Assembly (NCBI GenBank): GCA_965242505.1
Contig: OZ251449.1
Coordinates: forward strand, 3,598,630-3,662,629
DNA from: Alphaproteobacteria bacterium
Lineage (GTDB): Bacteria > Pseudomonadota > Alphaproteobacteria > UBA2966
Direction of reading: 5' to 3'
DNA length: 64,000 bases
Shown here one piece after another: positions 4,782 to 64,000 of the stretch. Both the position numbers and the translations under genes were made by a program. A model generated the notes under the pieces. That model did not search any database and was not told the origin of the DNA. It saw only the letters and a list, made by a program, of their open reading frames with translations. Position 1 is the first letter of the stretch. Every line of letters starts with the position of its first letter.

Positions 4782-4975
4782 ACCCCCCTCCCGACCTCCC
4801 CCCTGTCAGGGGGGAGGAGAGCGCGTGGTCAGGGGGGAGGAGTGTGAATGGTCAGGGGGGAAGCATGGATGGTCAGGGGGGAAGAGCGTCAACTGCCCCT
4901 CCGTCCCCTTCTTCTCCCTCCCCCTGGCAGGGGGAGGGTCGGGGTGGGGGTCGCGCCAAGGGGGAGGAGGGGCGC
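4782..4975. repeat. REP-like GC-rich palindromic element cluster (family found throughout window)
   Basis: CCCCTCCCGACCTCCCCCCTGTCAGGGGGGAGGAG plus CCCTCCCCCTGGCAGGGGGAGGGTCGGGGTGGGGGTCGCGCC hairpin modules; bounds approximate. Confidence 0.8.
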
Positions 4976-19560: not shown

Positions 19561-19608
19561 AATAGCGCCTTGCCGGGAACAAACAGGGAAACTATATTCG
19601 GGACCGTC

Positions 19609-22419: not shown

Positions 22420-22449
22420 TGAGACCGTTTGAGAAAGGAGTCGATAACA

Positions 22450-24120
22450 ATGGACAAAGAAAAGAAACGATTTCTGCAACAAGGTAAACTCGATGATCTG
22501 AGACATGATCGCAAGTTGAATGAAATGCTCACGGTATATGAATCCAATATCGGAAAATGGCATAATCATGGAACCTATAGTGTGCTGATCCCAAATCAAA
22601 TAGCCGATCATATTCTTTCCAGTTCTTCTTGGGATTTTCGTCATGGTCAGGGAACTCCGGGAAGGATGATTCGTAATTACGGTCATAACAAATCTGTCAA
22701 ATACCTCCGATACGGTAACGACGATGGTATGGAGCCATTGGTTATTGTTCGACATTTTTCGGGAATCAAAGACGATCATGTGGAGTTAAGTGAAGAATTC
22801 CGTTTGTTGCATAATCTGTATCATGATCGGAAAAAAGATCGATTCATCAAGATCGTTGATGGTGGAGAAGAGCAAGTGGTTGCCTGTGTTAAGCCTGACT
22901 TGATTGAGGTGCGGCTTAAGGAAATTCGACAATTTCTGTCAATAAAAGAAATGTATCTTTCTATGCAATTCGATTATATCGAATACTCCGACTTGTCGCT
23001 CTCTGAAATGAATTTACCTGCAAAAGAAGATGAAGAAAAGAGAGAAGGGGATATGCATTGGTTTTGGAACTGTGGCGAAGATCCTACCAGTACAGATTAC
23101 AAGTCGTTTAGCCGCTTGCTCGGAAAGCGTCTTTATGGTCCTCTGCCCAAATCGAAAAGTGGATTCGATGAGAGTAAGAAAGAATATGAGGAGTTTGTAA
23201 TAGGTATCGATGAAGATGGGAACGAAGTGAAGTTTACGTCGGATCCGGATATGTTGGCCGATTATTTCGGTGCGAACCCAGATGCGCCGAATTATCTTAC
23301 ATCTGTATATTTTAACAAAGAAGTTCTTGATAAATACTATCATCATTCGAGCAGATATACTGTTGAAGATTCTTTGCTTCGATGTGGATCCTTTTGGGTT
23401 CTTTGTATGGACAATCATCATGAAGACAAAGTTTGCGTATGGCTGGGAGACTTAGGGAGGGCCCTTCCGTACAAAGAACAGCTGCACTGGCGGGCGCATA
23501 ATATCATTCCACAAGGTAACATAAGCGAAACCTTTTACCGCAATCAAATTTTGGCAGAACCTATGAATTCAACGAATCCAGAACATGTCTTTCGGAGACA
23601 CTTTCATGATCTCCATGGTTTATGCCAGACTCGACTTGGATGGCCTATCTTCCTTCAGCTGGAACCTGAAGATCGACATCACTTGACGACGATGAGAGTT
23701 CCATCATCCAACGAACAAAGGGAATTCGATGAACTGATCCTCGGACTCACAAAGATACTTATAGATTCTTTGAATGTAAAAGGACTGAGAGGGATTGCGC
23801 CAAACAGAGGAAGGAACAAAAATCCCGGCAGCATCGACACGCTGCAAGAAGCACTGGATGCCATTGGTGTAACAGATTATGATGAACATGTGTCATTTTT
23901 GCGGGATCTTCAAAACCTGAGATCGTCGGGATCGGCGCATAGAAAGGGAAAGAGGTATAGCATGATTTCTGAAAAATTTGGTATGACCGAACACCATCGT
24001 CAGGATGTTTTCAAGACGATACTTGGAAAATCCTGTGATTTTTTGAGTTATTTGATCTGTCTTGTCGAAAGTGGCCGTATCGGCAACAACGATAGCTCCG
24101 GGTCCGCGTCTAGCGCTTGA
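22450..24120 (+). CDS. hypothetical protein, 556 aa, strongly AT-rich ORFan directly downstream of MmeI-like gene
   Basis: ATG 22450 with a consensus AAAGGAG RBS 9 nt upstream; about 38% GC against about 70% in flanks; no recognisable domain. Confidence 0.6.
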   Translation: MDKEKKRFLQQGKLDDLRHDRKLNEMLTVYESNIGKWHNHGTYSVLIPNQIADHILSSSSWDFRHGQGTPGRMIRNYGHNKSVKYLRYGNDDGMEPLVIVRHFSGIKDDHVELSEEFRLLHNLYHDRKKDRFIKIVDGGEEQVVACVKPDLIEVRLKEIRQFLSIKEMYLSMQFDYIEYSDLSLSEMNLPAKEDEEKREGDMHWFWNCGEDPTSTDYKSFSRLLGKRLYGPLPKSKSGFDESKKEYEEFVIGIDEDGNEVKFTSDPDMLADYFGANPDAPNYLTSVYFNKEVLDKYYHHSSRYTVEDSLLRCGSFWVLCMDNHHEDKVCVWLGDLGRALPYKEQLHWRAHNIIPQGNISETFYRNQILAEPMNSTNPEHVFRRHFHDLHGLCQTRLGWPIFLQLEPEDRHHLTTMRVPSSNEQREFDELILGLTKILIDSLNVKGLRGIAPNRGRNKNPGSIDTLQEALDAIGVTDYDEHVSFLRDLQNLRSSGSAHRKGKRYSMISEKFGMTEHHRQDVFKTILGKSCDFLSYLICLVESGRIGNNDSSGSASSA

Positions 24121-40005: not shown

Positions 40006-40033
40006 TTGACAGTCTCGGCACTCTCATTTAATG
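40006..40033 (+). promoter_or_regulatory. sigma-70-like promoter for IS1595-family transposase
   Basis: TTGACA (40006..40011), 15-16 nt spacer, TTTAAT/TTAATG; followed by an AAGGGGA RBS. Confidence 0.4.
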
Positions 40034-40059
40034 TCCGATTATTTCAAGGGGATATGGAC

Positions 40060-41040
40060 ATGTCGAAGGAAACCCCCAGAAAAGCCTACCGCGAAGGCAT
40101 CAGCATGGTCGAGCTGTTCCGGCGCTGGCCGGACGACGCGACTGCCGAGGCGTGGTTTGTCGCCCGCCGCTGGCCGGAAGGTGGCCACTGCCCGCATTGT
40201 GGCTCGACCGATGTGCAGTCCGGCGCGAAGCATAAGACCATGCCTTACCGCTGCCGGGCGAAGGAATGCGCAAAGCGGTTTTCCGCGAAGACCGGCACGG
40301 TCATGGAAGGCTCAAAGCTTGGCTTCCAAGTCTGGATGATCGCCACTTATCTGCTTTCGACTAGCCTGAAATCGGTTTCGAGCATGAAGCTGCATCGGGA
40401 TTTGAACATCAACCAGCGCAGCGCATGGTTCCTCGCCCATCGGCTGCGGGTCGCCTTGGCTGATCGGGAAGATGTATTCTCTGGCCCGATAGAGGCGGAT
40501 GAGACCTATGTGGGCGGCCGCCGGACCAACATGCCGAAGGCGAAGCGAAAAGAGCAGACAGGCCGCGGCACAGTCGGCAAGACAGCCGTCGTCAGCGTGA
40601 AGGATCGCGCGACAAGTCGTATTCATGTACAAGTCATCCCTTCCACTGATGGCGAAACCCTGCGATCCTTTATCCGCGACCATGCAGGGGAGGGAACCGT
40701 GGTCTACACGGACGGGCGTGGTGGCTACTGCGGGCTGGCGGCCGACTTCAAGCATGAGTCGGTCAATCATTCGGTCGATGAATATGTTCGCGGCATGGCC
40801 CATATGCAGGGCATCAAGAGCTTTTTGGTGATGCTGGATCGGGCGCATAAGGGACCATTCCACAAGTTCTCGCCGAAGTATTTTGACCGGTATGTGCAAA
40901 AAGTCTCTGAGTGCCACAACGCCCGTGACCGGGATATCATCGACATCATGGCGGCCTTCGCGGAAGGCGCGGTTGAGAAGCGTCTCCGCTACCGGGATTT
41001 GATTGCCGACAACAGCCTGCCTTTGGGGGCGCAGTCATGA
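40060..41040 (+). CDS. IS1595-family transposase (zinc-ribbon plus DDE)
   Basis: CPHCGS ... C..C zinc ribbon and an ISXO2-like DDE domain; ATG 40060 (or 40054). Confidence 0.8.
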   Translation: MSKETPRKAYREGISMVELFRRWPDDATAEAWFVARRWPEGGHCPHCGSTDVQSGAKHKTMPYRCRAKECAKRFSAKTGTVMEGSKLGFQVWMIATYLLSTSLKSVSSMKLHRDLNINQRSAWFLAHRLRVALADREDVFSGPIEADETYVGGRRTNMPKAKRKEQTGRGTVGKTAVVSVKDRATSRIHVQVIPSTDGETLRSFIRDHAGEGTVVYTDGRGGYCGLAADFKHESVNHSVDEYVRGMAHMQGIKSFLVMLDRAHKGPFHKFSPKYFDRYVQKVSECHNARDRDIIDIMAAFAEGAVEKRLRYRDLIADNSLPLGAQS

Positions 41041-42434
41041 TCGTGACGGCGGTATCCCCGCATGGAGGACCTACCGAAGAACGACAAGCATTGTCAGCGC
41101 GTTTCGCACCGCGTCTTGTCACCAGTGAGTTCTACTCCCGCAGGGTCGTCTCCTACCAAGGAAACCGTAAGGTGCCGGGCCTCCGGTGGATGAAATACAA
41201 GGAAGGTTTCTCCAGCCAGCTTGTGGCAGAATTGATTGAACAGGAGAATCCGCGCGCGGTTCTCGATCCTTTCGCTGGAATTTGCACAACGCCGCTTATC
41301 GCCGCTGGACAGGGACGCCGAGCAACAGGAATCGAAATCATGCCTGTTGGCGTGTTGGCCGGATCGGCTATTACAGAAGCGGCAAACGGTCTCTCATCGA
41401 GTGATTTCGATGAACATGCTTCTATCTTCTTGCAGTCTGTCAAAACGAAGAAATCTACCTCTGATTTCGCGTTCCCGCATGTGCGGATAACGGAGGGAGC
41501 CTTTTCCGGTGAAACAGAGAGAGAGATTGCCAAGGCAAGGCAATCTCTCTCGGAGATTGATAATGACGGATTGCGCTCACTCTTGGATTTGGCGTGTATG
41601 TCTGTCTTGGAGGAAGCTAGCTACACGCGCAAGGACGGTCAGTATCTCCGTTGGGACCGCAGGGCCAGAAGGTTGCTACGGTCGTCTGTGGATCTGGGTC
41701 CCATCCCCCGATTCTGTGACGCCTTGGAACGGCGGCTTGTGGAGATAGAGGAAGACATTGATTCACTCAAAAAGCAATTCGGGGGCGGAAAACCTAAGCT
41801 GATCATCGGATCATGCCTTGAATTGCTCAAGAGTATACCGGATGGCGAATTCGACATGGTGATTACATCACCGCCCTACGCCAATCGCTACGACTACACC
41901 CGCACATATGCACTAGAACTAGCATGGATGGGATTCGATCAAGGGGATTTTTCAGTGCTTCGCCAACGTATGCTGTCCTCGACGGTGGAAAACAAAACAA
42001 AGAGGGAAATTCTGGCAGGTGCCTATGGAACGGACTGTAGGGTATTTGATCTGGCCGCGCAAATGTATGATGGACAAGGTGCTGTCCATGAGGTGCTAAG
42101 CATTCTTAGGGAGAGAGAAGATGAGTTAAGTAACAAGAATGTACTGAAGCTCATCGAACAGTACTTTTTCGAGATGGCAATCGTCATATCTGAGCTTGGG
42201 CGCATTGTTCGCCCTGGTGGGGTTGTATTCATGGTCAATGACAATGTACAATACCACGGCGAGGAGCTGCCAGTGGATTTCATATTGTCAGATTTTGCCG
42301 AGAATTCTGGCTTTCATTGTGAGAGTATATGGAAGTTGGCCAGAGGCAAGGGGAATTCTAGCCAACAAATGGCTCGTTTCGGTCGCCGTGAACTGCGTAA
42401 ATGTGTTTATAGGTGGGTCCGATCCTATGACTGA
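41037..42434 (+). CDS. DNA methyltransferase (alpha-class N6-adenine/N4-cytosine; motif I LDPFAGICTT, motif IV SPPY)
   Basis: 465-aa ORF whose ATG overlaps the transposase stop (ATGA); about 50% GC. Confidence 0.7.
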   Translation: MIVTAVSPHGGPTEERQALSARFAPRLVTSEFYSRRVVSYQGNRKVPGLRWMKYKEGFSSQLVAELIEQENPRAVLDPFAGICTTPLIAAGQGRRATGIEIMPVGVLAGSAITEAANGLSSSDFDEHASIFLQSVKTKKSTSDFAFPHVRITEGAFSGETEREIAKARQSLSEIDNDGLRSLLDLACMSVLEEASYTRKDGQYLRWDRRARRLLRSSVDLGPIPRFCDALERRLVEIEEDIDSLKKQFGGGKPKLIIGSCLELLKSIPDGEFDMVITSPPYANRYDYTRTYALELAWMGFDQGDFSVLRQRMLSSTVENKTKREILAGAYGTDCRVFDLAAQMYDGQGAVHEVLSILREREDELSNKNVLKLIEQYFFEMAIVISELGRIVRPGGVVFMVNDNVQYHGEELPVDFILSDFAENSGFHCESIWKLARGKGNSSQQMARFGRRELRKCVYRWVRSYD

Positions 42435-43335
42435 CTACGTGCTCCGTTCCCGACTGTTTTCCGACATTCTCACCAAGCGGGAAGACAAAGCACAGCGACG
42501 CCTTATTGATGAATTCACTGACGAGTTAGACTTTGAACCCATTGACGAACTCATGATCAGCTTATCGGCTTGGGAGTATGTACTATCGCTAGGTGTCGCT
42601 CCGAAGGTTGTGTTCGCGCATCCTGATGTCCTCCGATCTCACCCAACGACTTCGCTCTACTATCGAGGCATGGCGCTTCTTTCCCGGAAGCGGGTTGGGC
42701 AGGCGGCCGCATCTGTGATGAATTGGGAGGACGGAACACGTACGATACCGATCCAACAAGACGCGGCCAAAAGGGTCGCCTGTCTCTACAACACCATGAT
42801 TTCGTCGATCATCGAAGGGTCGTCCGACTGGACGCTGGATAACGGCTACAGGAACATCCTTGCCACAATGGGGATTACGCTTGATGGCATGTTCCGCAAT
42901 AAGATCGGCGATATTGCCGAGACTCTTGTCAAAAACCGGATAGTGTCATGGCTGAAAGGTAAAGGACTTATCCCCCCGGATAGTCCGGAATGTGGGCGAT
43001 ACCTGCTGCCCGATGACACGCTCATGCAATACGGCTCGGACCCGGACATAGATTTCGTCAGGCGTGAACGGCTCATTGCTACCATTGAGATCAAAGGTGG
43101 TCGTGATCCCGCCGGTGCTCTCGAACGTCTCGGCGCTATGACAAAGAGCTTCGCCGAAACACCGCCCGGTTGTGTGAACTTTCTAGTCGCAGGCATCATA
43201 ACGCTGGAAATGCAAACGCGGCTCGATGCGATGGGGAATGTCAAAGTCTATCTGCTGGACGACGTCTCTCAAGATGGAGAGCCGTGGGATGACTTCACGA
43301 ATGAAGTCTTCCACCACGCAATCCGCGTGATCTAG
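42427..43335 (+). CDS. type II restriction endonuclease (PD-(D/E)XK; DPDID ... EIK)
   Basis: Start MTDYVLRS overlaps the MTase stop by 8 nt; 302 aa; restriction-enzyme-like block near the C-terminus. Confidence 0.5.
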   Translation: MTDYVLRSRLFSDILTKREDKAQRRLIDEFTDELDFEPIDELMISLSAWEYVLSLGVAPKVVFAHPDVLRSHPTTSLYYRGMALLSRKRVGQAAASVMNWEDGTRTIPIQQDAAKRVACLYNTMISSIIEGSSDWTLDNGYRNILATMGITLDGMFRNKIGDIAETLVKNRIVSWLKGKGLIPPDSPECGRYLLPDDTLMQYGSDPDIDFVRRERLIATIEIKGGRDPAGALERLGAMTKSFAETPPGCVNFLVAGIITLEMQTRLDAMGNVKVYLLDDVSQDGEPWDDFTNEVFHHAIRVI

Positions 43336-43556
43336 CATGGAGGGAGCGATGATCGAGAAACCGAAGCTGCAAGAGGTTGAAGTCGTGCATCCCAACTACC
43401 AGCCGAGTAAGGCTGAATTGGAGGAAGATATGCGGGTCGAGGCGGCCTTCGATGAAGCCGTGGCCGCGCTCTCCCAGCCCGTCAACATCCGCTACATCGA
43501 CCGGCCGCGATGAGCGGCCTTCGGCACTTTCCTACATAACCCCCCCTTCAAAGGAA

Positions 43557-44435
43557 GTGGAGCATTCGCCGGTCTTCTCGTTCGGTTCGGTCGAACTGTA
43601 CGAGGCCGACTGTTTCGCGTGGCTTGAAACGCAGCCCGAGAACAGCGTTCACGGCGTGGTCACCGATCCCCCGTACGGACTGGTCGAATACAGTCCGAAG
43701 GAACAGGAAAAGCTCCGCAACGGCCGAGGGGGAGTCTGGAGGCTCCCGCCCTCGTTCGACGGGCATCGAAGGTCGCCCCTGCCCAGATTCACGACGCTGA
43801 CGCGAAGCGACCTGGACGACATGCGGGAGTTCTTCACGCGCTGGGGAAGGCTCCTTCACGAGGTCCTCGTTCCGGGCGCCCACGTCTTCGTCGCGTCGAA
43901 CCCGCTCGTGTGTCATCGCGTGGCGGACGCCTTGTCCGACGCCGGCCTCGAGGCCAGGGGCGCGATCGCGCGCCTCGTCATGACGATGCGCGGCGGCGAC
44001 AGACCCAAGAACGCGCACGACGAGTTTCCCGACGTGACGGTCATGCCGCGTTCCATGTGGGAGCCGTGGCTCCTGTTCCGGAAACCTCTGGAGGGCAGGG
44101 TTCAGGACAATCTGCGGCGCTGGAAGACCGGCGGGTTGAGGCGCGTATCCGGCCGGCGGCCGTTCGGGGACGTCATCGAATCGCATCCGGCGAGGCCCGC
44201 CGAACGAAGCATCGCCCCGCATCCGTCCCTGAAACCGCAATCGTACCTGCGGCGGATCGTCCGCGCGGCGCTGCCGTTCGGAGAGGGTGTCGTGCTCGAT
44301 CCGTTCGCGGGGTCGGGCTCCACGCTCGCCGCGGCTTCCGCCCTGGGGTACCGGGCGATCGGGATCGAGATCGATCCGGAATACGTTCGGGTCGCCGGGG
44401 AAGCCGCGCCGAAACTGTCGGAACTTTCCGTCTGA
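43557..44435 (+). CDS. DNA methyltransferase (beta-class; DPPY motif IV then LDPFAGSGST motif I)
   Basis: 292 aa assuming a GTG start at 43557 after an AAAGGAAG RBS (no in-frame ATG near the N-terminus); second MTase of the island. Confidence 0.7.
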   Translation: MEHSPVFSFGSVELYEADCFAWLETQPENSVHGVVTDPPYGLVEYSPKEQEKLRNGRGGVWRLPPSFDGHRRSPLPRFTTLTRSDLDDMREFFTRWGRLLHEVLVPGAHVFVASNPLVCHRVADALSDAGLEARGAIARLVMTMRGGDRPKNAHDEFPDVTVMPRSMWEPWLLFRKPLEGRVQDNLRRWKTGGLRRVSGRRPFGDVIESHPARPAERSIAPHPSLKPQSYLRRIVRAALPFGEGVVLDPFAGSGSTLAAASALGYRAIGIEIDPEYVRVAGEAAPKLSELSV

Positions 44436-55915: not shown

Positions 55916-55953
55916 GCCGTGCGGGGCCTGAGCAACCGGATAGATGGGTAACA

Positions 55954-57171
55954 CTATAGACCGGATACATGGGTAACAGTGTTCCCGGTCTGTCCCGCTT
56001 CCGTGCGGCCCGGCCGGGCCGCACGGAAGCGGTCAAGCTTCTTCGACCTCCGATCGATGATCCCGAGGTCGACATCCGCGAAGCGGACGATCCAGTCGCC
56101 CCCGTCAGTCTCGGCCACGCCCACAGGCTCACCCCTCAGCGTCTCGCTGACGAAGACCAGATCGCCGCCCCACTTGATGGAGCCATCGGTGCGGACCCGG
56201 CGCATCGCGTGCTCGGCATCGTACTAGGGCTCCTCCAGGCGCTCGGGATGACGCCGCTCCGACGACCGGTAGAACGCCGCAGGCGGCTTCTGCCCCAAGG
56301 CCTCATGCGGACGATGGACGTTGAAGTCCTGGCGGAAGCGGTCGAAGCGGGCCTGTTGCGCGTCCGCCGTCGCCGCCGGCGGCGTCGCGGTCTCGGCCTT
56401 CAACGTCCGATGCATCCGCTCATGCCTCCCGTTCTGCTGCGGCTGACCCCGCGCAATCCGCTCCACCGCGATCCCGGCCTTGATCCATTCCACCGACAGA
56501 CGCGACAGACCCCCAGCCCCCGGACCGGCGAACGGCGCCCCGTTGTCCGAACGGATGGCCTCGGGAACCCCGTAGCGCCGGAACACCCGCCCCACCGCCG
56601 CCCCCACCGCTGCGGTCTGCGGCGGGACGATGACGCACGCCAACAGAAAGCGGCTGTAGGCGTCGGTGATCGTCAGCGGATCGCAGCGGACGCCGTCGCG
56701 GGTGCGAAACCACCCCTTGAAGTCGATACACCACACGTCGTTGGGAGCCGCCACAGGGCGGAACGGACGACACGGAGCCGCCATCCGACGGCGCCGGCGA
56801 CGGCGCGCCACCAGACCCTCCGCCCGCAGCAGGTCGCCCATCGTGCTGGCCGCCGGCCACGCCACCTCGGGGTGCTCACCCACCAACACCGCCCGCAGCT
56901 TGCGCGGACCCCAGTGCGGACGCGTGCGGCGCAAGGCGATGATCGCCTCGGCCACCGACGGCGCCATCGACCGACCATGGCGACGCGGCGCCCGCGACCG
57001 CTCGACCAGACCCTCCGGGCCGTCGCCGCGATACCGATCAAGCCACTTGTACCCGGTCTTGCGGCTGATGCCGTAGTGCTCGCACAGCGCCGTCATCGAC
57101 CACTCGCCACGCAGATAATCGGCAACGAAAACCAGCTTCTCGTCCATCGGACAGGTCTCCTTCCAAGGCAT
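55954..57171 (-). pseudogene. IS481-family transposase split by a frameshift (ORFs 56224..57171 and 55954..56205)
   Basis: N-terminal HTH plus rve integrase core in one frame; the conserved C-terminal DGSIKWGG...VGV...DG.W.V.F block sits in another frame. Confidence 0.6.
55996..56035. repeat. perfect 19-bp-arm palindrome inside IS481 element (terminator-like hairpin)
   Basis: CCGCTTCCGTGCGGCCCGG / CCGGGCCGCACGGAAGCGG. Confidence 0.7.
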
Positions 57172-57269
57172 CGGCCGCACCTCCCGCACCTCCCGACCAA
57201 CCCTCTAACCTGTTACCCATGTATCCGGTCTAAACTGTTACCTTTCTATCCGGTCTGTACCGCCGCGAC

Positions 57270-57400
57270 CCCCCTCCCGACCTCCCCCCTGTCAGGGGGG
57301 AGGAGTATGAATGGCCTCTCCGCTCCCCTTCTTCTCCCTCCCCCTTGCAGGGGGAGGGTCGGGGTGGGGGTCGCGCCAGGAGGGAGGAGCGCGAACGGCC
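57270..57400. repeat. REP-like palindromic element cluster
   Basis: Same family modules. Confidence 0.8.
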
Positions 57401-57442
57401 CCTGCGGCGGCGGCGTCGACGCGTCCGCCCCCTCGCCCGGGA

Positions 57443-57462
57443 GGCGTGAAATTAGGGTTTAC
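57443..57462 (+). promoter_or_regulatory. conserved 20-bp box GGCGTGAAATTAGGGTTTAC upstream of NHLP precursor A
   Basis: Identical box at 58221..58240 and 59144..59163, each about 110-230 nt upstream of a precursor gene. Confidence 0.5.
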
Positions 57463-57477
57463 CCCCCCCCCCCCCCC
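57462..57477. repeat. poly(C)16 homopolymer tract
   Basis: 16 consecutive C immediately after the conserved box; the other two copies have short C-rich but interrupted sequence here. Confidence 0.85.
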
Positions 57478-57570
57478 GCGCTACGTACGATGCCGAAGAC
57501 TCGATGACGGGTTCCGGTGTCTCGAACCACGGGATGGAGCATCCGTCCGAACCTTGCAGAGGAGACGATC

Positions 57571-57990
57571 ATGCGCGACGACGTTTACGGGGGTATCCAC
57601 GATGGCATGCGCCAGCAAGGCGTCATCCTTCAGGATCTCGCCAATGCCTGCCATTCCGACGAGGATCTGCTGCGCGCGCTCGAGGAGCGTCCGGAGGAAA
57701 TTCTGCGGGAGCGCGGGATCGACGTGCCGATGGATGAGGGCCTGGACGTGAAGGTCGTCCTCAACACCCGCGACACCTTCCACCTGGCCATGATTCCCGA
57801 CCCGAACCAGGAGCTCCAGGACGAGGCGCTGATGGCGGTCGCCGGCGGCAAGACCAATGGCTGTGCGAGCTCGGGGGGAACCGTCGGGAGCATTCCTTCC
57901 ACCGCGAGTTCGATCAGCTCCCTGGGCTGCGCCAGCAGCCAGTCGGGCTGCGCCAGCAGCGTGTCGGACGCGTCGAGGACGAGGCAGTAG
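57571..57990 (+). CDS. NHLP (nitrile-hydratase-leader) family RiPP precursor peptide A
   Basis: Leader ...VKVVLNTRDTFHLAMIPDPNQELQDEALMAVAGG followed by a 46-aa core rich in Ser/Thr/Gly/Cys (KTNGCASSGGTVGSIPSTASSISSLGCASSQSGCASS...); GGAGACGATC RBS. Confidence 0.75.
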   Translation: MRDDVYGGIHDGMRQQGVILQDLANACHSDEDLLRALEERPEEILRERGIDVPMDEGLDVKVVLNTRDTFHLAMIPDPNQELQDEALMAVAGGKTNGCASSGGTVGSIPSTASSISSLGCASSQSGCASSVSDASRTRQ

Positions 57991-58044
57991 CCCGCATTTC
58001 TCATGCCGGCAGGGATCGAGGGTTTCGCGGCGTTGCAGGGCCGC

Positions 58045-58175
58045 GGACCCCCCTCCCGACCTCCCCCCTGTCAGGGGGGAGGAGTATGAATGGCCTCTCC
58101 GCTCCCCTTTTTCTCCCTCTCCCTGGCAGGGGGAGGGTCGGGGTGGGGGTCGCGCCAGGAGGGAGGAGCGCGAAC
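58045..58175. repeat. REP-like palindromic element cluster
   Basis: Same family modules. Confidence 0.8.
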
Positions 58176-58220
58176 GGCCCCTGCGGCGCCTCCGTCGACG
58201 CGTCCGCCCCCTCGCTCGGG

Positions 58221-58240
58221 GGCGTGAAATTAGGGTTTAC
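58221..58240 (+). promoter_or_regulatory. conserved box GGCGTGAAATTAGGGTTTAC upstream of precursor B
   Basis: Identical to 57443..57462. Confidence 0.5.
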
Positions 58241-58450
58241 TCTCCCTCCCCCGCCATGGATTGATGCCGAAGACCCGGCGACGGAGAACAGGCAGGGTCA
58301 TATCAGTGCGTGATCGCCGCGCATCAGAGCCTGGCCGGGGGTGAGGGGCAGCCAGGCAACGGAGAACAACAAGACTGCATCGGTGGGGCGATATGGTACG
58401 CGCCCGACGTTTGGTGGAGCATCCACCCGAACTTCGCAAGGGAGACGATC

Positions 58451-58849
58451 ATGAGCGACTACGTTCACCAGGAAGGCCATCAGGAAGACGTCTACGGCGT
58501 CACTCTCCGGCGAGGCATCGTCCTTCAGGGCATCGCCGACGCCTGCCGTTCCGACGAGGATCGGCTGCGCGAGGTCGAGGAGCGTCCGAAGGACGTTCTG
58601 CGGGAGCACGGGATCGACATGCCGGTGGGCGTGGACGTGAAGGTCGTCCTCAACACCCGCGACACCTTCCACCTGGCCATGCCTCCCGACCCGAACCAGG
58701 TGCTCCAGGACGAGTCGCTGATGGCGGTCGCCGGCGGCGGCAAGACGATGGGCACGGTGGGCACGATGGCGACCACCTCGACCCTGCCTTCCTGCGTGGG
58801 CACGGCCGGAAGCGTGAGCAGCTTCGCGACCGCGAGGGACAGCCTTTAG
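58451..58849 (+). CDS. NHLP-family RiPP precursor peptide B
   Basis: Paralogous leader ending LMAVAGGGK; core TMGTVGTMATTSTLPSCVGTAGSVSSFATARDSL. Confidence 0.75.
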   Translation: MSDYVHQEGHQEDVYGVTLRRGIVLQGIADACRSDEDRLREVEERPKDVLREHGIDMPVGVDVKVVLNTRDTFHLAMPPDPNQVLQDESLMAVAGGGKTMGTVGTMATTSTLPSCVGTAGSVSSFATARDSL

Positions 58850-58934
58850 CCCGCATTTCTCATACCGCTTGTCCGCAAGCTCCATCCGGCGACGGAGGCG
58901 CCGCAGGGTCCGTTCGCGTTCCTTCCCCCTTGGA

Positions 58935-59050
58935 GCGGCCCCCACCCCGACCCTCCCCCTGCAAGGGAGAGGGAGGGGGACGGAGGGTGTGCGGATCCCC
59001 TTTTCACGCTCCTCCCCCCTGACAGGGGGGAGGTCGGGAGGGGGGTCCCG
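58935..59050. repeat. REP-like palindromic element cluster
   Basis: Same family modules. Confidence 0.8.
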
Positions 59051-59143
59051 GTCCCGCAACGCCGCGCGATCCTCGATCCCTGCCGGTATGGGAAATACGG
59101 GTCGGGATGCCGTTTCCGGCGCGAAGGCGACGGTCGTGACGGA

Positions 59144-59163
59144 GGCGTGAAATTAGGGTTTAC
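59144..59163 (+). promoter_or_regulatory. conserved box GGCGTGAAATTAGGGTTTAC upstream of precursor C
   Basis: Identical to 57443..57462. Confidence 0.5.
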
Positions 59164-59266
59164 TCCCCTCCATTATGGTGTGGATGATGCCGAAGACTTG
59201 GGGATGGGTTCCAGTATCTCGAACCGCTGGACGGAGCAGTCCCCGAACATCGCAGGGGAGACGATC

Positions 59267-59668
59267 ATGCGACACGACATCCACCAGGAAGACGCCCACG
59301 GCATCTTCCTTCAGCGCGCCCGTGTTTTCCAGAACCTCGCCGACGCCTGCCGCTCCGACGAGGATCGGCTGCGCGAGGTCGAGGAGCGTCCGAAGGAAAT
59401 TCTGCTGGAGCACGGACACGACGTTCCGGAGGACATGGACGTGAAGGTCGTCCTCAACACCCGTGACGTCTTCCACTTGGCCATGCCTCCCGATCCGAAC
59501 CAGGCGCTCCAGGACGAGGCGCTGATGGCGGTCGCCGGCGGCGGCAAGACCGCGAGCACCGCGGGCTCGGTCGGATGCGCCGGGACCGTTCCCTCGACCG
59601 CGAGCACGCTCAGCACCGCGGGCTCCGTCGGCAGCGTGGACTCGGGCGGCGCCTTGCCATGGGCGTAG
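59267..59668 (+). CDS. NHLP-family RiPP precursor peptide C
   Basis: Paralogous leader ending LMAVAGGGK; core TASTAGSVGCAGTVPSTASTLSTAGSVGSVDSGGALPWA. Confidence 0.75.
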   Translation: MRHDIHQEDAHGIFLQRARVFQNLADACRSDEDRLREVEERPKEILLEHGHDVPEDMDVKVVLNTRDVFHLAMPPDPNQALQDEALMAVAGGGKTASTAGSVGCAGTVPSTASTLSTAGSVGSVDSGGALPWA

Positions 59669-59693
59669 CGCGCCGTCCGTCGGCGCGCCGGCG

Positions 59694-61193
59694 GTGACGA
59701 CCGTCGTCCTCCCGTCCCGGCCGGGGCCTCCGTCCGCCGCGGCCGGGACGGGAGGGACGGCCGGCGACTCCCGTTCGGACGGTGAGTCGCGGCTCTATGC
59801 GCATGTGAAGCGCTTCCGTGAGCGCTGGCTGGCCGACGACCGCTTCCGCGCCGCCGTTCACGACGATCCTCGGGCCGCCGTCGCGCGCGCCGGGCTCGAT
59901 ATGGATCCTTCTCCGCTCGACTTCCTCTGGCGTTCCGGCGCGCCGATCGACCGCGCCGCGCCGTCCGTCAGCGCCTACCTGCGCGTCGAAAGCCGGGCGC
60001 GGGCCTATATCGACTTCGCCGCCGACGATGCGGGCGCGGCCGAGCCCTACCGGCTCTGGCGGGCGCGCCAGAAGGCGCGGGCCGCCTTCGCGGAAGGCTA
60101 CGTCGTGGCGCCGCTGTCCCTGCATCTGCCCTTCACCGTGGAGCTGACCCAGGGCTGCTCGCTCGGCTGCTGGTTTTGCGGGCTCTCCGCGCGGCCGCTG
60201 GAGGCGGTCCTGCGGACGGACGTCGACGCCTGGGAAGAGATGCTGCGGGCGCTGCGCGGAGTCTTCGGCGAGAGCGCCGCGCGGGGCTTCCTGTTCTGGG
60301 CGACGGACCCCCTCGACCATCCGGATTACGAGGCTCACGCGGACGCCTTCCGCCGCGTGCTCGGACGCTTCCCCACGACCACGACGGCGGCGGCGACCGC
60401 CGACTTCGACCGCGTCCGGCGCCTCATGGCCCTCTCGCGGTCCGCGGAGTATCCGTATCCGGTGCTGCGTTTCTCCGTGGTCTCGCTGCGCCGGCTGAAC
60501 GAGATCCATGCGGCGTTCTCGCCCGAGGAGCTCGCGGAGGTGGACTTCGTCATGCTCAACCGCGAGTCCATGCTCGCCCTCGCGGAGGCCGGTCACGTCC
60601 GCGACGTGGCCAGGCGCTGGCCCGAACGCGTCGAGCGCGAGCGGAGCAAGTTCCGCGAGAACAGGAGCGGCCCGTATGCCGATGACGACGAGATCTGGTC
60701 GCATCGCACCATCTGCTGCGTCTCCGGCTTCCTGATCGAGCCCATCGCCGGCCGGGTCCGTCTGATCTCCCCTGAACCCAGCTCCGACCGCTGGCCGGAC
60801 GGCAGCGTGGTCTTCGGCGAGGAGCGGTTCGCTCATGCCGGCGAGCTCGCGGGCGCGCTCGACCGGCTGATCGCCGGCCACATGGGGCCGGAGCCGCCGG
60901 AGCGTCTGGCGCTCCAGCGCGGAGTGACGGTCACGGCGCCGTTCCACGCCCAGGCGCGCGCCGAGGGCCGCGGCCATCGGGTCACCTTTACGGCGCGGCG
61001 CGACCTCGCCCACATGCCGGCCCTCGCCGAGGCCTTTCGCGGGGGCGCGCGGGTGGAGGACGCGGTCGGGCGCGTCGCCAGCCGCTTCGGGATCGAGCCC
61101 CGCCTCGCGCGCAACGACGCCGTCGACCTCTGGCGCCACGGGGCGCTGATCGAGACGATCTTCGATCTCGCCGACGCCGGGGAGCGCCCCTGA
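59694..61193 (+). CDS. radical-SAM-like protein (CxxxCxxC), candidate RiPP maturase of unusual architecture
   Basis: 499-aa ORF 26 nt after precursor C; ELTQGCSLGCWFCGLS at about residue 155; no obvious SPASM-type extra Cys clusters; GTG start. Confidence 0.5.
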   Translation: MTTVVLPSRPGPPSAAAGTGGTAGDSRSDGESRLYAHVKRFRERWLADDRFRAAVHDDPRAAVARAGLDMDPSPLDFLWRSGAPIDRAAPSVSAYLRVESRARAYIDFAADDAGAAEPYRLWRARQKARAAFAEGYVVAPLSLHLPFTVELTQGCSLGCWFCGLSARPLEAVLRTDVDAWEEMLRALRGVFGESAARGFLFWATDPLDHPDYEAHADAFRRVLGRFPTTTTAAATADFDRVRRLMALSRSAEYPYPVLRFSVVSLRRLNEIHAAFSPEELAEVDFVMLNRESMLALAEAGHVRDVARRWPERVERERSKFRENRSGPYADDDEIWSHRTICCVSGFLIEPIAGRVRLISPEPSSDRWPDGSVVFGEERFAHAGELAGALDRLIAGHMGPEPPERLALQRGVTVTAPFHAQARAEGRGHRVTFTARRDLAHMPALAEAFRGGARVEDAVGRVASRFGIEPRLARNDAVDLWRHGALIETIFDLADAGERP

Positions 61194-61215
61194 GGGGAAC
61201 GGCGCCGGCGCGGCC

Positions 61216-62064
61216 CTACGCCGCGCGCCGGTCGAAACGATCGAGGTAGCGCGGCGCGATCCGGTCCACGAACAGGAGAATGAAGACGTCCGTGGTCCCG
61301 AAGGCGTGATCGACCACGGCGCCGTCGCCGACGAAGGCGCCGAGGCGGAGGTACGCCTTGACGAGGGGCGGCAGTCCGCGGACGGCCTCGCGGAGGGTGT
61401 AGGAGCCGGGTGGAACCGTGTCCATCGGCGCGAACCGGTCGGGCCTGGCGCGCACGCGGCAGCGGACCGGCGCCAGGTAGGCGTCGTGGAGATGGCTCAG
61501 GGCGACCCGGTGCTCGTCCGGGCGCGTCCCGGGAAAGCTGGCGCAGCCGAACATGACCCCGATGCCGTGGATTCCCAGATACCGGGCTATGCCGCGCCAG
61601 AGGAGCCGGATCGTCGCGTTCGCGCGGTAGGCGGGATGCACGCAACTGCGTCCCAGTTCCAGAAGGCCCCCGCGTCGCGACGGCCCGTCGGTCAGCGGGG
61701 CCAGGTCGTACTCGGCCGCCGAATAGAAGCCGCCGCGGTCGGCCGCCGCGTCTTCCCGCAACAGTCGATAGGTCCCGACGACGGCCTCCGCGGCCGGCAG
61801 GCCGTGATCGACGACCAGCAGGTGATCGCAGACGTCGTCGAACGGATCCGCGTCCCGGCGGCTCGCCCGCGCGACCGCATCGGGCCGGGCGTCCATCTCT
61901 TCGTGGAACACGCGGAACCGCAGCGCCTGCGCGGCGGCGACCTCTTTTCGATCCTGGGCGAAGCGAACCTCCAGACGGCCTGACGCGGCGCAGGAGAACC
62001 CCTGGAACTCCCGGAACGCGAACTCCGGGAACGTTCCGTCAGGCGCTGTGAGAACGTCGGTCAC
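61216..62064 (-). CDS. GNAT-family N-acyltransferase (OlsB/hemolysin-like acyltransferase family)
   Basis: 282-aa ORF convergent with the rSAM gene; Acetyltransf_5-like sequence. Confidence 0.5.
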   Translation of the reverse strand: MTDVLTAPDGTFPEFAFREFQGFSCAASGRLEVRFAQDRKEVAAAQALRFRVFHEEMDARPDAVARASRRDADPFDDVCDHLLVVDHGLPAAEAVVGTYRLLREDAAADRGGFYSAAEYDLAPLTDGPSRRGGLLELGRSCVHPAYRANATIRLLWRGIARYLGIHGIGVMFGCASFPGTRPDEHRVALSHLHDAYLAPVRCRVRARPDRFAPMDTVPPGSYTLREAVRGLPPLVKAYLRLGAFVGDGAVVDHAFGTTDVFILLFVDRIAPRYLDRFDRRAA

Positions 62065-62179: not shown

Positions 62180-62470
62180 GGGGAGGCGGAGGGAGCCGTC
62201 GACGCCCCTCTCCCTAGCCATCCACGCTCCTCCCCCCGGCGCGACCCCCACCCCGCCCCTCCCCCTGACCATCCACACTCCTCCCCCCTGGCAGGGGGGA
62301 GGTCGGGAGGGGGGTCCGGATGGACATGCCCCGCCGCCGGTGACCCCCACCCCGCCCCTCCCCCTGCCAGGGGGAGGGAGAAGAGGGGGACGGAGGGTGT
62401 GCGAAATGTGCGGATCGCCTTTTCACACTCCTCCCCCCTGGCAGGGGGGAGGTCGGGAGGGGGGTGGACC
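62180..62470. repeat. REP-like palindromic element cluster
   Basis: Several modules including the GTGTGCGAAATGTGCGGATCGCCTTTTCACACTCC submodule. Confidence 0.8.
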
Positions 62471-62614
62471 GCGGCCCGACGGTGTGCGGATTGTGCGGGT
62501 CGGGGTGTCGTAATCGGAAGGACCGGAGTCGCTCGCAACGCAGCATGGGGACGGTCCCCGACTATGTTGACCCCGCTTCGGGCGGTGAGGGCCCGGAGTC
62601 GTCCGTCTTCGTCG

Positions 62615-63565
62615 ATGAGGCGCGCCGCAGTGGCCCTGTTTTCGATGGACCCGGCCCGGGAATGCGAGGAGGAGCCGCGCGCGCCGGCGCCGGACGCGCT
62701 CGGCGCGTTGCTCGACGGCCACTCCGTCGAGGTGACGCCCGCGCAGGTTGCCGACGGCGGCGTCGACCGGTTCCTTGCGCGGGGAACGCGCGTCTTCGTT
62801 CCCTGGCTGCCGGGCGCTGCGGCGGATGCGACGGTCGCCGCCGCGGCCGGGTTGCGGGAGCAGGGCATGGTTCCGGTCCCCCACGTCGCGGCGCGGGCCA
62901 TGCCGGACGCCGTCTCGCTGGACAGGTTGTTGCGGCGCCTGAGATCGGAGGCGGCGGTCGACCGGGTTCTCGTCGTCGGCGGCGACGTCGCGTCGCCGGA
63001 GGGGCCTTTCGATTCCGCCCTGGGCGTTCTCGAAACGGATCTGTTGCCCGAACACGGCATCGCGCGCGTCGGTATCGGCGGATATCCCGAAGGCCATCCT
63101 CGCGTCTCCGACGGCGAGCTTCTGGACGCGCTGCTTCGGAAGCAGGACCGCGCGGCGCGGGCGGGGCTCGGCGCGTTCGTGGTGACCCAGTTCGCCTTCG
63201 ACGCCGCGCCCGTGATCGACTGGCTGCGCCGCGCGCGCGCGGCCGGCGTGCGCCTGCCCGTTCACGTGGGGGCGCCGGGGCCGGCCCGCGTCGGCGCCCT
63301 GATGCATTACGCGAAGATGTGCGGCGCCGGCCCGTCCATGAGGCTGTTGCTGCGCCACGGCAGGGGGTTGGCCGGCGCGTCGCGCGTCGCGAACGCCAGC
63401 CGCACGGTCCTCGACCTCGCGGCGCACGCCGCCGCGCATCCGGACGCCGGGCTCGGCCCCCTGCACGTCTATCCGTTCGGCGGGCTGAAGCGCGCCGCCG
63501 ACTGGACCGAGGGCCTCGGAGGCCGCGACTCCGTCCGGCCCGGATCCGCCCTCAGCGTCCGCTGA
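62615..63565 (+). CDS. methylenetetrahydrofolate reductase family protein (MetF-like)
   Basis: C-terminal about 300 aa of ORF 62048..63565 resemble an MTHFR TIM-barrel; start (62615 or 62645) uncertain. Confidence 0.45.
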   Translation: MRRAAVALFSMDPARECEEEPRAPAPDALGALLDGHSVEVTPAQVADGGVDRFLARGTRVFVPWLPGAAADATVAAAAGLREQGMVPVPHVAARAMPDAVSLDRLLRRLRSEAAVDRVLVVGGDVASPEGPFDSALGVLETDLLPEHGIARVGIGGYPEGHPRVSDGELLDALLRKQDRAARAGLGAFVVTQFAFDAAPVIDWLRRARAAGVRLPVHVGAPGPARVGALMHYAKMCGAGPSMRLLLRHGRGLAGASRVANASRTVLDLAAHAAAHPDAGLGPLHVYPFGGLKRAADWTEGLGGRDSVRPGSALSVR

Positions 63566-64000
63566 CCCGCGCCTGACGCGGCGTCAGGCCGTAGAACTGC
63601 CGGTAGCACTTGGCGAAGTGCGAGGCGGCGACGAACCCGCAGGCCATCGCCACGTCGACGACGGTCATGTCGGTTTGCAGCAGGAGCTTGCGCGCCCGGT
63701 CGAGGCGCAACTGCATGTAGTGGCGGTTGGGGGGCCGCCCCATGTGCCGCCGGAACAACCGTTCCAGCTGGCGGCGGGAAATACCGACGGCCGCCGCGAG
63801 CTCCACCTGGGAGAGCGGTTCCTCGAGGTGGGTTTCCATCAGGTGGATGGAGTCGATCAGCCTGCGGTTGTCGACGCCGAGGCGGACGGCCAGGGGCATG
63901 CGCTGGTGGTCGTGTCCTCCGCGAACGCGGTCGAGGATGCATTCCTCGGAGACGCGGTTCGCCAACTCCTCGCCGTGCTCCGCGCGGATGAGATGGAGCA
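63552..64000 (-). CDS. AraC-family transcriptional regulator (C-terminal HTH part; N-terminus beyond window end)
   Basis: Dual HTH_AraC blocks (LSQVELAAAVGISRRQLERLFR ... ASHFAKCYRQFYGLTP); frame open to position 64000. Confidence 0.6.
   Translation of the reverse strand, partial: LHLIRAEHGEELANRVSEECILDRVRGGHDHQRMPLAVRLGVDNRRLIDSIHLMETHLEEPLSQVELAAAVGISRRQLERLFRRHMGRPPNRHYMQLRLDRARKLLLQTDMTVVDVAMACGFVAASHFAKCYRQFYGLTPRQARVSGR

Follow-up and report, generated by a model that had tools for sequence, protein, structure and literature searches.

A proteusin locus with three NHLP precursors and a PoyD-family radical-SAM epimerase, probably the satellite half of a split dehydrazole-type gene cluster

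Precursor genes and gene order at the locus

This analysis concerns a 64-kb stretch of an alphaproteobacterial genome (lineage UBA2966; contig OZ251449.1, positions 3,598,630 to 3,662,629; the whole stretch is referred to here as the window) and, within it, a locus in which three genes for precursor peptides with nitrile hydratase-like leader peptides (NHLP), preA, preB, and preC, are followed by the gene for a 499-amino-acid radical S-adenosylmethionine (SAM) protein. An initial annotation had read this arrangement as a locus for peptides that are synthesized on ribosomes and then modified posttranslationally (RiPPs), and that reading is supported: the open reading frame (ORF) list contains all four genes (Table 1), the precursors are paralogous, and the putative maturase has no cysteine motifs for auxiliary iron-sulfur clusters. 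The ribosome-binding site GGAGAC-N4-ATG precedes each of the three precursor genes, and preC lies as close to the radical-SAM gene as had been described, although we counted a gap of 25 nucleotides (nt) and not 26. The leader regions are 79 to 96% identical to one another at the DNA level over 112 to 300 nt, and the cores are hypervariable; because of this leader identity, and because orthologues are found in two other genomes, the paralogy of the precursors is not attributable to chance.

Table 1. Features of the locus and of its upstream border (positions are those of the window)
Feature	Position	Strand	Description
preA	57571..57990	+	139 aa: leader 93 aa (ends LQDEALMAVAGG), core 46 aa; core start 57850; Pro codon 57895-57897
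preB	58451..58849	+	132 aa: leader 97 aa, core 35 aa (KTMGTVGTMATTSTLPSCVGTAGSVSSFATARDSL); core start 58742; Pro codon 58787-58789
preC	59267..59668	+	133 aa: leader 93 aa, core 40 aa; core start 59546; Pro codon 59591-59593
PoyD/CcaD-family radical-SAM peptide epimerase	59694..61193	+	499 aa; N-terminal helical domain (~29-141), radical-SAM core, predicted C-terminal RRE-like domain
CxxxCxxC triad codons (C155, C159, C162)	60156..60179	+	Invariant in 32 homologues
C341-C342 codons	60714..60719	+	TI(A/C)CVSGF motif; C342 conserved in at least 90% of 32 homologues
IS481-family insertion sequence, complete	55935..57254	-	Upstream border of the locus; outside the pathway
AT-rich conserved box, GTGAAATTAGGGTTTAC	57440..57470, 58218-58248, 59141-59171	+	Direct-repeat family D9

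All three leaders end in the pattern L(Q)DE(A/S)L-MAVAGG(G)K and carry an L(X)4L motif (LQDEAL). Against the TIGR03793 model (leader_NHLP; cutoff, 50.9 bits), membership in the NHLP family held outright for preC (53.5 bits), whereas preA (43.2 bits) and preB (48.7 bits) fell below the cutoff; these two scores are of no concern, because CcaA, an experimentally validated NHLP precursor, also scores 43.2 bits. The NHase_alpha model matched the window precursors weakly. The cores are enriched in Ser, Thr, Gly, Ala, and Cys, but at 66 to 72% of residues the description "almost only" was somewhat overstated. At the sequence level, they contain motifs of the dehydrazole type, with Ser ahead of Ser, Thr, or Cys that may form azoles, and each has an (I/L/V)-P-S-(T/C) motif with its Pro at core position 16. 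This Pro is nearly invariant in an alignment of 12 precursor sequences and occupies the same column as Pro15 of CcaA, which lies in the motif TVPSCVS.

The radical-SAM protein belongs to the PoyD epimerase family

The radical-SAM protein, which had been called atypical, matches the PoyD epimerase family TIGR04517 (rSAM_PoyD, "radical SAM family RiPP maturation amino acid epimerase") almost from end to end (312.4 bits, E = 5e-93, model positions 1 to 429 of 446), in addition to the general radical-SAM model PF04055 (27.6 bits). Its CxxxCxxC triad proved invariant among homologues (Table 1), and as annotated it has no SPASM or twitch cysteine clusters: the whole enzyme contains five Cys, namely, the triad plus residues 341 and 342. 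Profile searches of Pfam and NCBIfam gave no SPASM family match, and neither these searches nor the Cys count indicated a B12-binding domain or an auxiliary cluster. The lack of SPASM is the norm for proteusin epimerases, because these carry the radical-SAM cluster and a C-terminal RiPP recognition element (RRE) alone (PMC8326336). PoyD homologues use a single strictly conserved Cys (Cys372 in PoyD) as hydrogen-atom donor (PMC8326336), and C342 is its presumed equivalent in the window enzyme. The characterized epimerase CcaD is 30% identical to the window enzyme over 463 aa, and the two have the CC pair in common, within a CC(V)(S/T)GF motif.

Structure prediction agrees with this assignment at the level of the fold. 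An AlphaFold2 model of the enzyme (predicted local distance difference test score [pLDDT], 87.9; predicted template modeling score [pTM], 0.87) gave weak but consistent Foldseek matches in the PDB to the radical-SAM cores of BtrN, SkfB, SuiB, and EpeE, and, locally, to PqqD and the ThcOx, LynD, and TigE RRE domains (probability, 0.89 to 1.0 over 77 to 94 residues). The model thus points to an RRE-like domain, the C-terminal placement of which we take from the published description of these enzymes (PMC8326336). A PDB sequence search with the epimerase returned zero matches, even at E ≤ 1; since this search was empty and the Foldseek matches are weak and local, there is no close structural template.

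Two side observations touch on the N-terminal part of the enzyme. Residues 39 to 78 resemble leaders of the NHLP clan (NF038399, 29.7 bits; PF14407, 17.2 bits), with the stretch DPRAAVARAGLDMDP in the enzyme versus RPKDVLREHGIDMP in the precursors; because this region belongs to the PoyD family model, the resemblance is a family-wide feature. Separately, the called protein of a 72%-identical homologue on an ENA contig (P0005) opens with a precursor-like tail, MRAVAGGKIHGTASSADTVGSVPSSASS, that runs in frame into the epimerase; either precursor and epimerase are naturally fused here, or a stop or start was missed in gene calling.

The initial annotation also held that NHLP precursors paired with a radical-SAM enzyme without SPASM would be an undescribed combination. 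That pairing is the founding definition of the proteusins, which were defined by PoyA-type precursors with nitrile hydratase-like leaders and a PoyD-type epimerase (Freeman 2012 and Morinaka 2014, as summarized in PMC8326336). The locus is therefore a proteusin locus, of a kind known since 2012, and not a new class.

Partner genes lie outside the window

No YcaO, SagB-type dehydrogenase, DUF4135/LanM-like gene, LanM, or peptidase-containing ATP-binding transporter (PCAT) is encoded in the 64-kb window, in line with the annotated absence of a C39 ATP-binding cassette (ABC) exporter from it. Exact-sequence look-ups placed the epimerase and two of the precursors on a contig of 3,666,911 bp, and contigs of exactly this length also carried two YcaO/thiazole-oxazole-modified microcin (TOMM) cyclodehydratases (P0091 and P0202), a SagB dehydrogenase (P0204), a DUF4135 protein (P0206), an Asp/Arg hydroxylase (P0239), and a PCAT (P0222); a C39 exporter is thus encoded elsewhere on the same contig, together with the YcaO, SagB, and LanM-like partners. 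P0222 is an NHLP-type C39 peptidase/ABC exporter (TIGR03796, 1030 bits; cutoff, 853). P0206 and CcaM show 25% identity over 838 aa, and P0206 matches positions 89 to 708 of the 932 in the LanM model (235 bits; cutoff, 304). The YcaO paralogues P0091 and P0202 fall into one 90%-identity cluster.

The distance between the locus and these partners was taken from a position-indexed sister genome in place of the window's own contig. This sister (OZ251446.1, an alphaproteobacterial metagenome-assembled genome [MAG], retrieved as both L001 and L003) encodes an epimerase 93% identical to that of the window, which stands with four precursors at 0.932 to 0.954 Mb. Its main cluster, at 3.859 to 3.903 Mb, comprises four NHLP precursors, YcaO, SagB, DUF4135, hydroxylases, a PCAT, and a second YcaO, along with an APH-like kinase, a membrane-fusion protein, a second ABC protein, and an outer-membrane factor; the sister likewise has two YcaO paralogues in one 90%-identity cluster, one at either end of the main cluster and oppositely oriented (L082:10001-12364 and L083:10001-12376). 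A tblastn search over the 44 kb of this main cluster found no epimerase. The satellite and the main cluster of the sister are about 1 Mb apart if the chromosome is circular, or about 2.9 Mb by linear coordinates, and transposases flank both. Two called "genes" of 314 and 228 aa beside the sister epimerase have repetitive translations and look like spurious ORFs across repeats, and we set them aside. In the main clusters of two genomes, NHLP-like leader-only proteins of 81 to 86 aa that end in LHIVLPAP(P/L)K(E) and have no core are encoded directly upstream of the outer-membrane-factor gene (L002:18606-18851 and L083:12573-12833).

Relatives of the epimerase sit in unsplit clusters

The epimerase family amounted to 70 cluster representatives in the protein search and 491 loci in contigs restricted to one genome per species. 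All loci that were fetched were searched with the proteins of one full cluster, L002, and a neighbor-joining (NJ) tree of the epimerases was built. In this tree, the window enzyme and its sister nest in a clade with nine other loci (L004 to L012; 53 to 83% identity) from MAGs labeled Alphaproteobacteria, Vicinamibacterales, Gammaproteobacteria, and "Candidatus Porisulfidus"; these MAGs are possibly sponge associated. YcaO, a SagB/ThcOx-type dehydrogenase, and DUF4135 stand beside the epimerase gene in all nine, and the loci contain as many as 16 NHLP precursor-like stretches and, in many cases, a C39 ABC exporter. We found no published description of this clade of clusters in the literature.

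The closest of the nine, L004 (83% identity), is unsplit: a precursor gene comes first, followed by the epimerase, DUF4135, SagB, and YcaO genes and then by three precursors. Nucleotide synteny between the window and L004 covers 59148 to 61444 and ends about 250 nt past the epimerase stop codon. The sister orthologue of preA is 75% identical, and the cluster formed by preA at an identity of at least 90% includes a member in the L004 genome (6.1 Mb). For preB, the core is identical in the sister, with zero nonsynonymous changes, and differs by two residues in L004, where the preB counterpart lies directly upstream of the epimerase inside the unsplit cluster. The orthologue of preC is the sister's pre4 (L001), at 83% identity. 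The ratio of nonsynonymous to synonymous substitution rates (dN/dS) is 0.32 for the epimerase against its sister orthologue and 0.5 to 1.0 for the leaders, the latter being too noisy for interpretation in such short precursors, with 2 to 17 synonymous differences per comparison.

Three Vicinamibacterales MAGs of the clade (L005, L006, and L012) combine the same enzyme set with short, Cys-rich cores of 18 to 22 aa that have no central Pro, such as CASTLISCALCFS; the epimerase target in these MAGs must therefore differ.

The locus as the probable half of a split dehydrazole pathway

Since the partner genes are on the same contig outside the window, the relatives are unsplit, and the main cluster of the sister is without an epimerase, we consider the locus to be the satellite half of a split dehydrazole (carnazolamide-like) proteusin gene cluster, with a probability of roughly 0.7. 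On the simplest reading, the cluster broke between the epimerase and DUF4135 genes in an ancestor shared by the window and sister genomes, in both of which insertion sequences are present at the cluster borders.

The order of reactions can be modeled on carnazolamide of Chryseobacterium carnipullorum, for which eight azoles are installed by YcaO and a dehydrogenase, Ser residues preceding azoles are next dehydrated by CcaM, the DUF4135 enzyme, and CcaD turns Pro15 into D-Pro only after both steps (PMC10676384). By analogy, the remotely encoded YcaO cyclodehydratase and SagB dehydrogenase would first convert Ser, Thr, and Cys residues of the cores into azoles, and the LanM-like DUF4135 enzyme, also encoded remotely, would next dehydrate core Ser. 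The epimerase, judging from its family, would cleave SAM with a single [4Fe-4S] cluster at C155, C159, and C162; the resulting 5'-deoxyadenosyl radical would take the C-alpha hydrogen of a core residue, and Cys342 would give a hydrogen back on the opposite face, leaving a D-residue. The most likely target would be the Pro of the (I/L/V)-P-S-(T/C) motif, by its alignment with CcaA Pro15; the D-Pro and azole chemistry of the window precursors is predicted from sequence motifs. Finally, the main cluster's NHLP-type C39 peptidase ABC transporter would cut off the double-glycine leader and export the peptide; the GG(G) end of the leaders matches this exporter, P0222. The L(X)4L motif of the leaders is one that NHLP-recognizing enzymes use, according to the Mpr and srp literature.

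Several points weigh against a split pathway of this kind or against its details. The leaders of satellite and main-cluster precursors differ in their N-terminal helices, and in the Mpr system it is these helices that determine YcaO specificity. Pro is missing altogether from some precursors of related clusters. PoyD, OspD, and AvpD, which are likewise proteusin epimerases, act on unmodified precursors (PMC8326336, PMC10676384), and azole formation therefore need not come first. The NJ tree puts the window clade and the CcaD clade on separate branches; because of this, and with only 30% identity between the enzymes, the transfer of D-Pro specificity from CcaD is uncertain. As regards the family itself, 312 bits falls just under the curated TIGR04517 cutoff of 325; the cluster-embedded relatives L002 and L004 also score below it, at 315 to 316 bits (312 to 316 for the clade), and validated CcaD scores 374. 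By the profile match, homology of the window enzyme to the PoyD family is nonetheless certain, and just the strict threshold was missed. Lastly, the placement of the partner genes on one contig is based on its exact length of 3,666,911 bp, and a second epimerase in the window genome is conceivable.

Some of these points would also suit a self-contained operon in which the epimerase introduces D-residues into otherwise unmodified cores, with no azoles or dehydroamino acids, and the remote cluster supplies only an exporter and a protease. The precursors are physically linked to an epimerase alone in two genomes, and the satellite leaders form a subtype of their own, with Pro at core position 16 versus 19 to 21 in main-cluster precursors; in addition, cyanobacterial proteusin epimerases work on unmodified precursors (PMC8326336), and epimerization can be early (PMC10676384). 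We regard such an operon, although a serious alternative, as less likely, since the orthologue of preB resides within the unsplit L004 cluster near DUF4135, SagB, and YcaO, and the other nine clade members are without exception embedded in heterocyclase clusters. In their abundance of Ser, Thr, and Cys, the cores themselves resemble YcaO substrates, they have the P-S-(T/C) motif in common with carnazolamide, and CcaD, the one characterized epimerase of a YcaO/DUF4135 cluster, needs azoles and dehydroalanines first (PMC10676384).

It is very improbable that the locus is a decaying remnant, in which precursors and epimerase were left as nonfunctional passengers by a rearrangement mediated by insertion sequences. 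A complete IS481 element does lie directly upstream, satellite and main cluster of the sister are both flanked by transposases, and the dN/dS of the leaders is 0.5 to 1.0, but all four ORFs are intact with conserved ribosome-binding sites, and the arrangement has been maintained in two genomes that have diverged to 93% identity. The epimerase, with a dN/dS of 0.32, retains its catalytic Cys residues, the preB core shows the conservation described above in both the sister and L004, and the main cluster depends on the satellite epimerase if that is the only copy. We give next to no credence to the idea that the locus represents a new class of RiPPs, with NHLP precursors undergoing novel chemistry such as cross-linking or methylation by an atypical radical-SAM enzyme that lacks SPASM, because the nearly full-length match to the PoyD model, the CC(V)(S/T)GF motif shared with homologous, validated CcaD, and the absence of a B12-binding domain and of an auxiliary cluster outweigh the lack of a solved structure for the family (an empty PDB search and weak fold matches), the score slightly below the family cutoff, and the lack of a characterized member in the window clade.

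We entertain only tentatively that the split itself is functional, that is, that one epimerase with private precursors either serves two loci in trans or makes separate, epimerase-only Ser/Thr/Gly-rich peptides with D-residues. A single enzyme toolkit would then give one genome two separately regulated product families, and the clade, which is seen in uncultured MAGs only, would be an uncharacterized and highly diversified branch of dehydrazole-like proteusins.

Apart from correcting an apparent novelty, the pairing in the window being that of a proteusin, the analysis brings out, in uncultured Alphaproteobacteria, Vicinamibacterales, and Gammaproteobacteria, an uncharacterized clade of dehydrazole-like proteusin clusters in which each genome has many precursors. 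It also offers a clear case of a RiPP pathway split across a chromosome, the halves of which would appear in cluster-based genome mining as two clusters, both incomplete. The fixed Pro in otherwise hypervariable cores makes a testable prediction of the epimerization site.

Surroundings of the locus and repeats in the window

The IS481 element at the upstream border has inverted repeats of 45 nt (55935-55979 and 57210-57254; 91% complementary) and a transposase gene on the minus strand (56224-57189; NF033577, 218.6 bits). Farther upstream are a spermidine synthase gene and an ABC-auxiliary gene; downstream are olsB, an MTHFR-like gene, and a small divergent ORF (63552-63965), which looks like an AraC-type regulator by its translation.

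Each precursor ATG has the AT-rich box of Table 1 at 100 to 130 nt upstream, in a genome of about 70% GC. The box may be a per-gene promoter, operator, or other regulatory site; it contains no match to the sigma-70 consensus, and a scan of 57200 to 61400 for sigma-70 promoters and terminators found nothing above chance. An Rfam scan of the entire window returned zero RNA families. The gaps between the precursor genes are filled by units of about 200 nt (57263-57476, 58038-58255, and 58887-59171, with another at 62232-62475) in which a palindrome resembling repetitive extragenic palindromic (REP) elements, CTCCCCCCTGNCAGGGGGGAG, is embedded. We had considered these intergenic repeats as a locus-specific element and rejected this, as the REP-like palindrome is genome-wide, with 17 copies in the 64 kb versus 0.02 expected by chance, all reported on the plus strand (for example, at 4796, 13043, 17938, 24315, 25551, 48583, 57282, 58061, 59012, 62281, and 62431).

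Two other regions of the window were noted in passing. At 19570 to 24120, a 949-aa MmeI-like type IIL restriction-modification enzyme is encoded directly ahead of a 563-aa ORF (22429-24120) with no Pfam match, which lies where the GC content of the window is lowest (47%, 22001-24000) and could be a horizontally acquired defense-island gene. A low-GC island at 40006 to 44435 (about 55% GC) contains an IS1595-family transposase, two N4/N6 DNA methyltransferases, and an XcyI-like restriction endonuclease.

Comparison with known systems

Among other radical-SAM maturases, the SPASM/twitch enzymes (sactisynthases and the ranthipeptide and streptide enzymes) do not accommodate the window protein, with its two nontriad Cys and no SPASM match in Pfam or NCBIfam. 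EpeE/YydG of the epipeptides is likewise a radical-SAM C-alpha epimerase with a Cys hydrogen donor (PMC8326336), but it belongs to an unrelated family, has a SPASM-type second cluster and acts on precursors with short leaders (PMC8326336), and the fold match to it is only weak. The locus is also not a class II lanthipeptide locus with NHLP/Nif11 leaders (prochlorosin type), there being no LanM in the window and P0206 scoring below the LanM cutoff.

Closer in their precursors are the srp system of a sponge microbiome (SrpE/SrpC/SrpI) and the mpr system (MprE1-10/MprC/MprD), in which the NHLP leaders bear the L(X)4L motif and stop at a GG boundary, each cluster has many paralogous precursors, and the chemistry is that of YcaO and a dehydrogenase. 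The srp cores differ in being short, brominated LCCCW sequences, and the portion of the srp source available to us mentions no epimerase; the term "epimerase" is absent from the MprC paper as well. We tried membership in the srp sponge proteusins and rejected it because of the different core type (LCCCW) and because the window has no halogenase.

With the classical proteusin systems, polytheonamide PoyA/PoyD, OspA/OspD, AvpA/AvpD, and PlpA/PlpD, the locus has in common an NHLP precursor and a PoyD-family epimerase, the latter having a single [4Fe-4S] cluster, the conserved catalytic Cys, and an RRE, as well as several precursor genes beside one epimerase. Their cores, however, are hydrophobic or Asn rich and are epimerized at many sites without prior heterocyclization, whereas the window cores are rich in Ser, Thr, Gly, Ala, and Cys and the clade is YcaO associated.

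The remaining comparison is with the cca cluster (C. carnipullorum DSM 25581, locus L067). It is a single cluster with one precursor, an S8 protease, and an S-methyltransferase, whereas the window epimerase and its three precursors stand apart; the window leaders, moreover, terminate in GG and have a C39 PCAT as their counterpart, there are many precursors per genome, and the epimerase belongs to another branch of the family. The combination of YcaO and DUF4135 genes clustered with a precursor, by which dehydrazoles are recognized, is absent at the locus itself and present at the level of the genome. What the two systems share is an NHLP precursor whose core is rich in Ser, Thr, and Cys and has at its center a V-P-S-C motif in cca (that of the window being of the same type), a PoyD-family epimerase with a CC motif, and a genome-level set of YcaO, SagB-type dehydrogenase, and DUF4135 LanM-like dehydratase.

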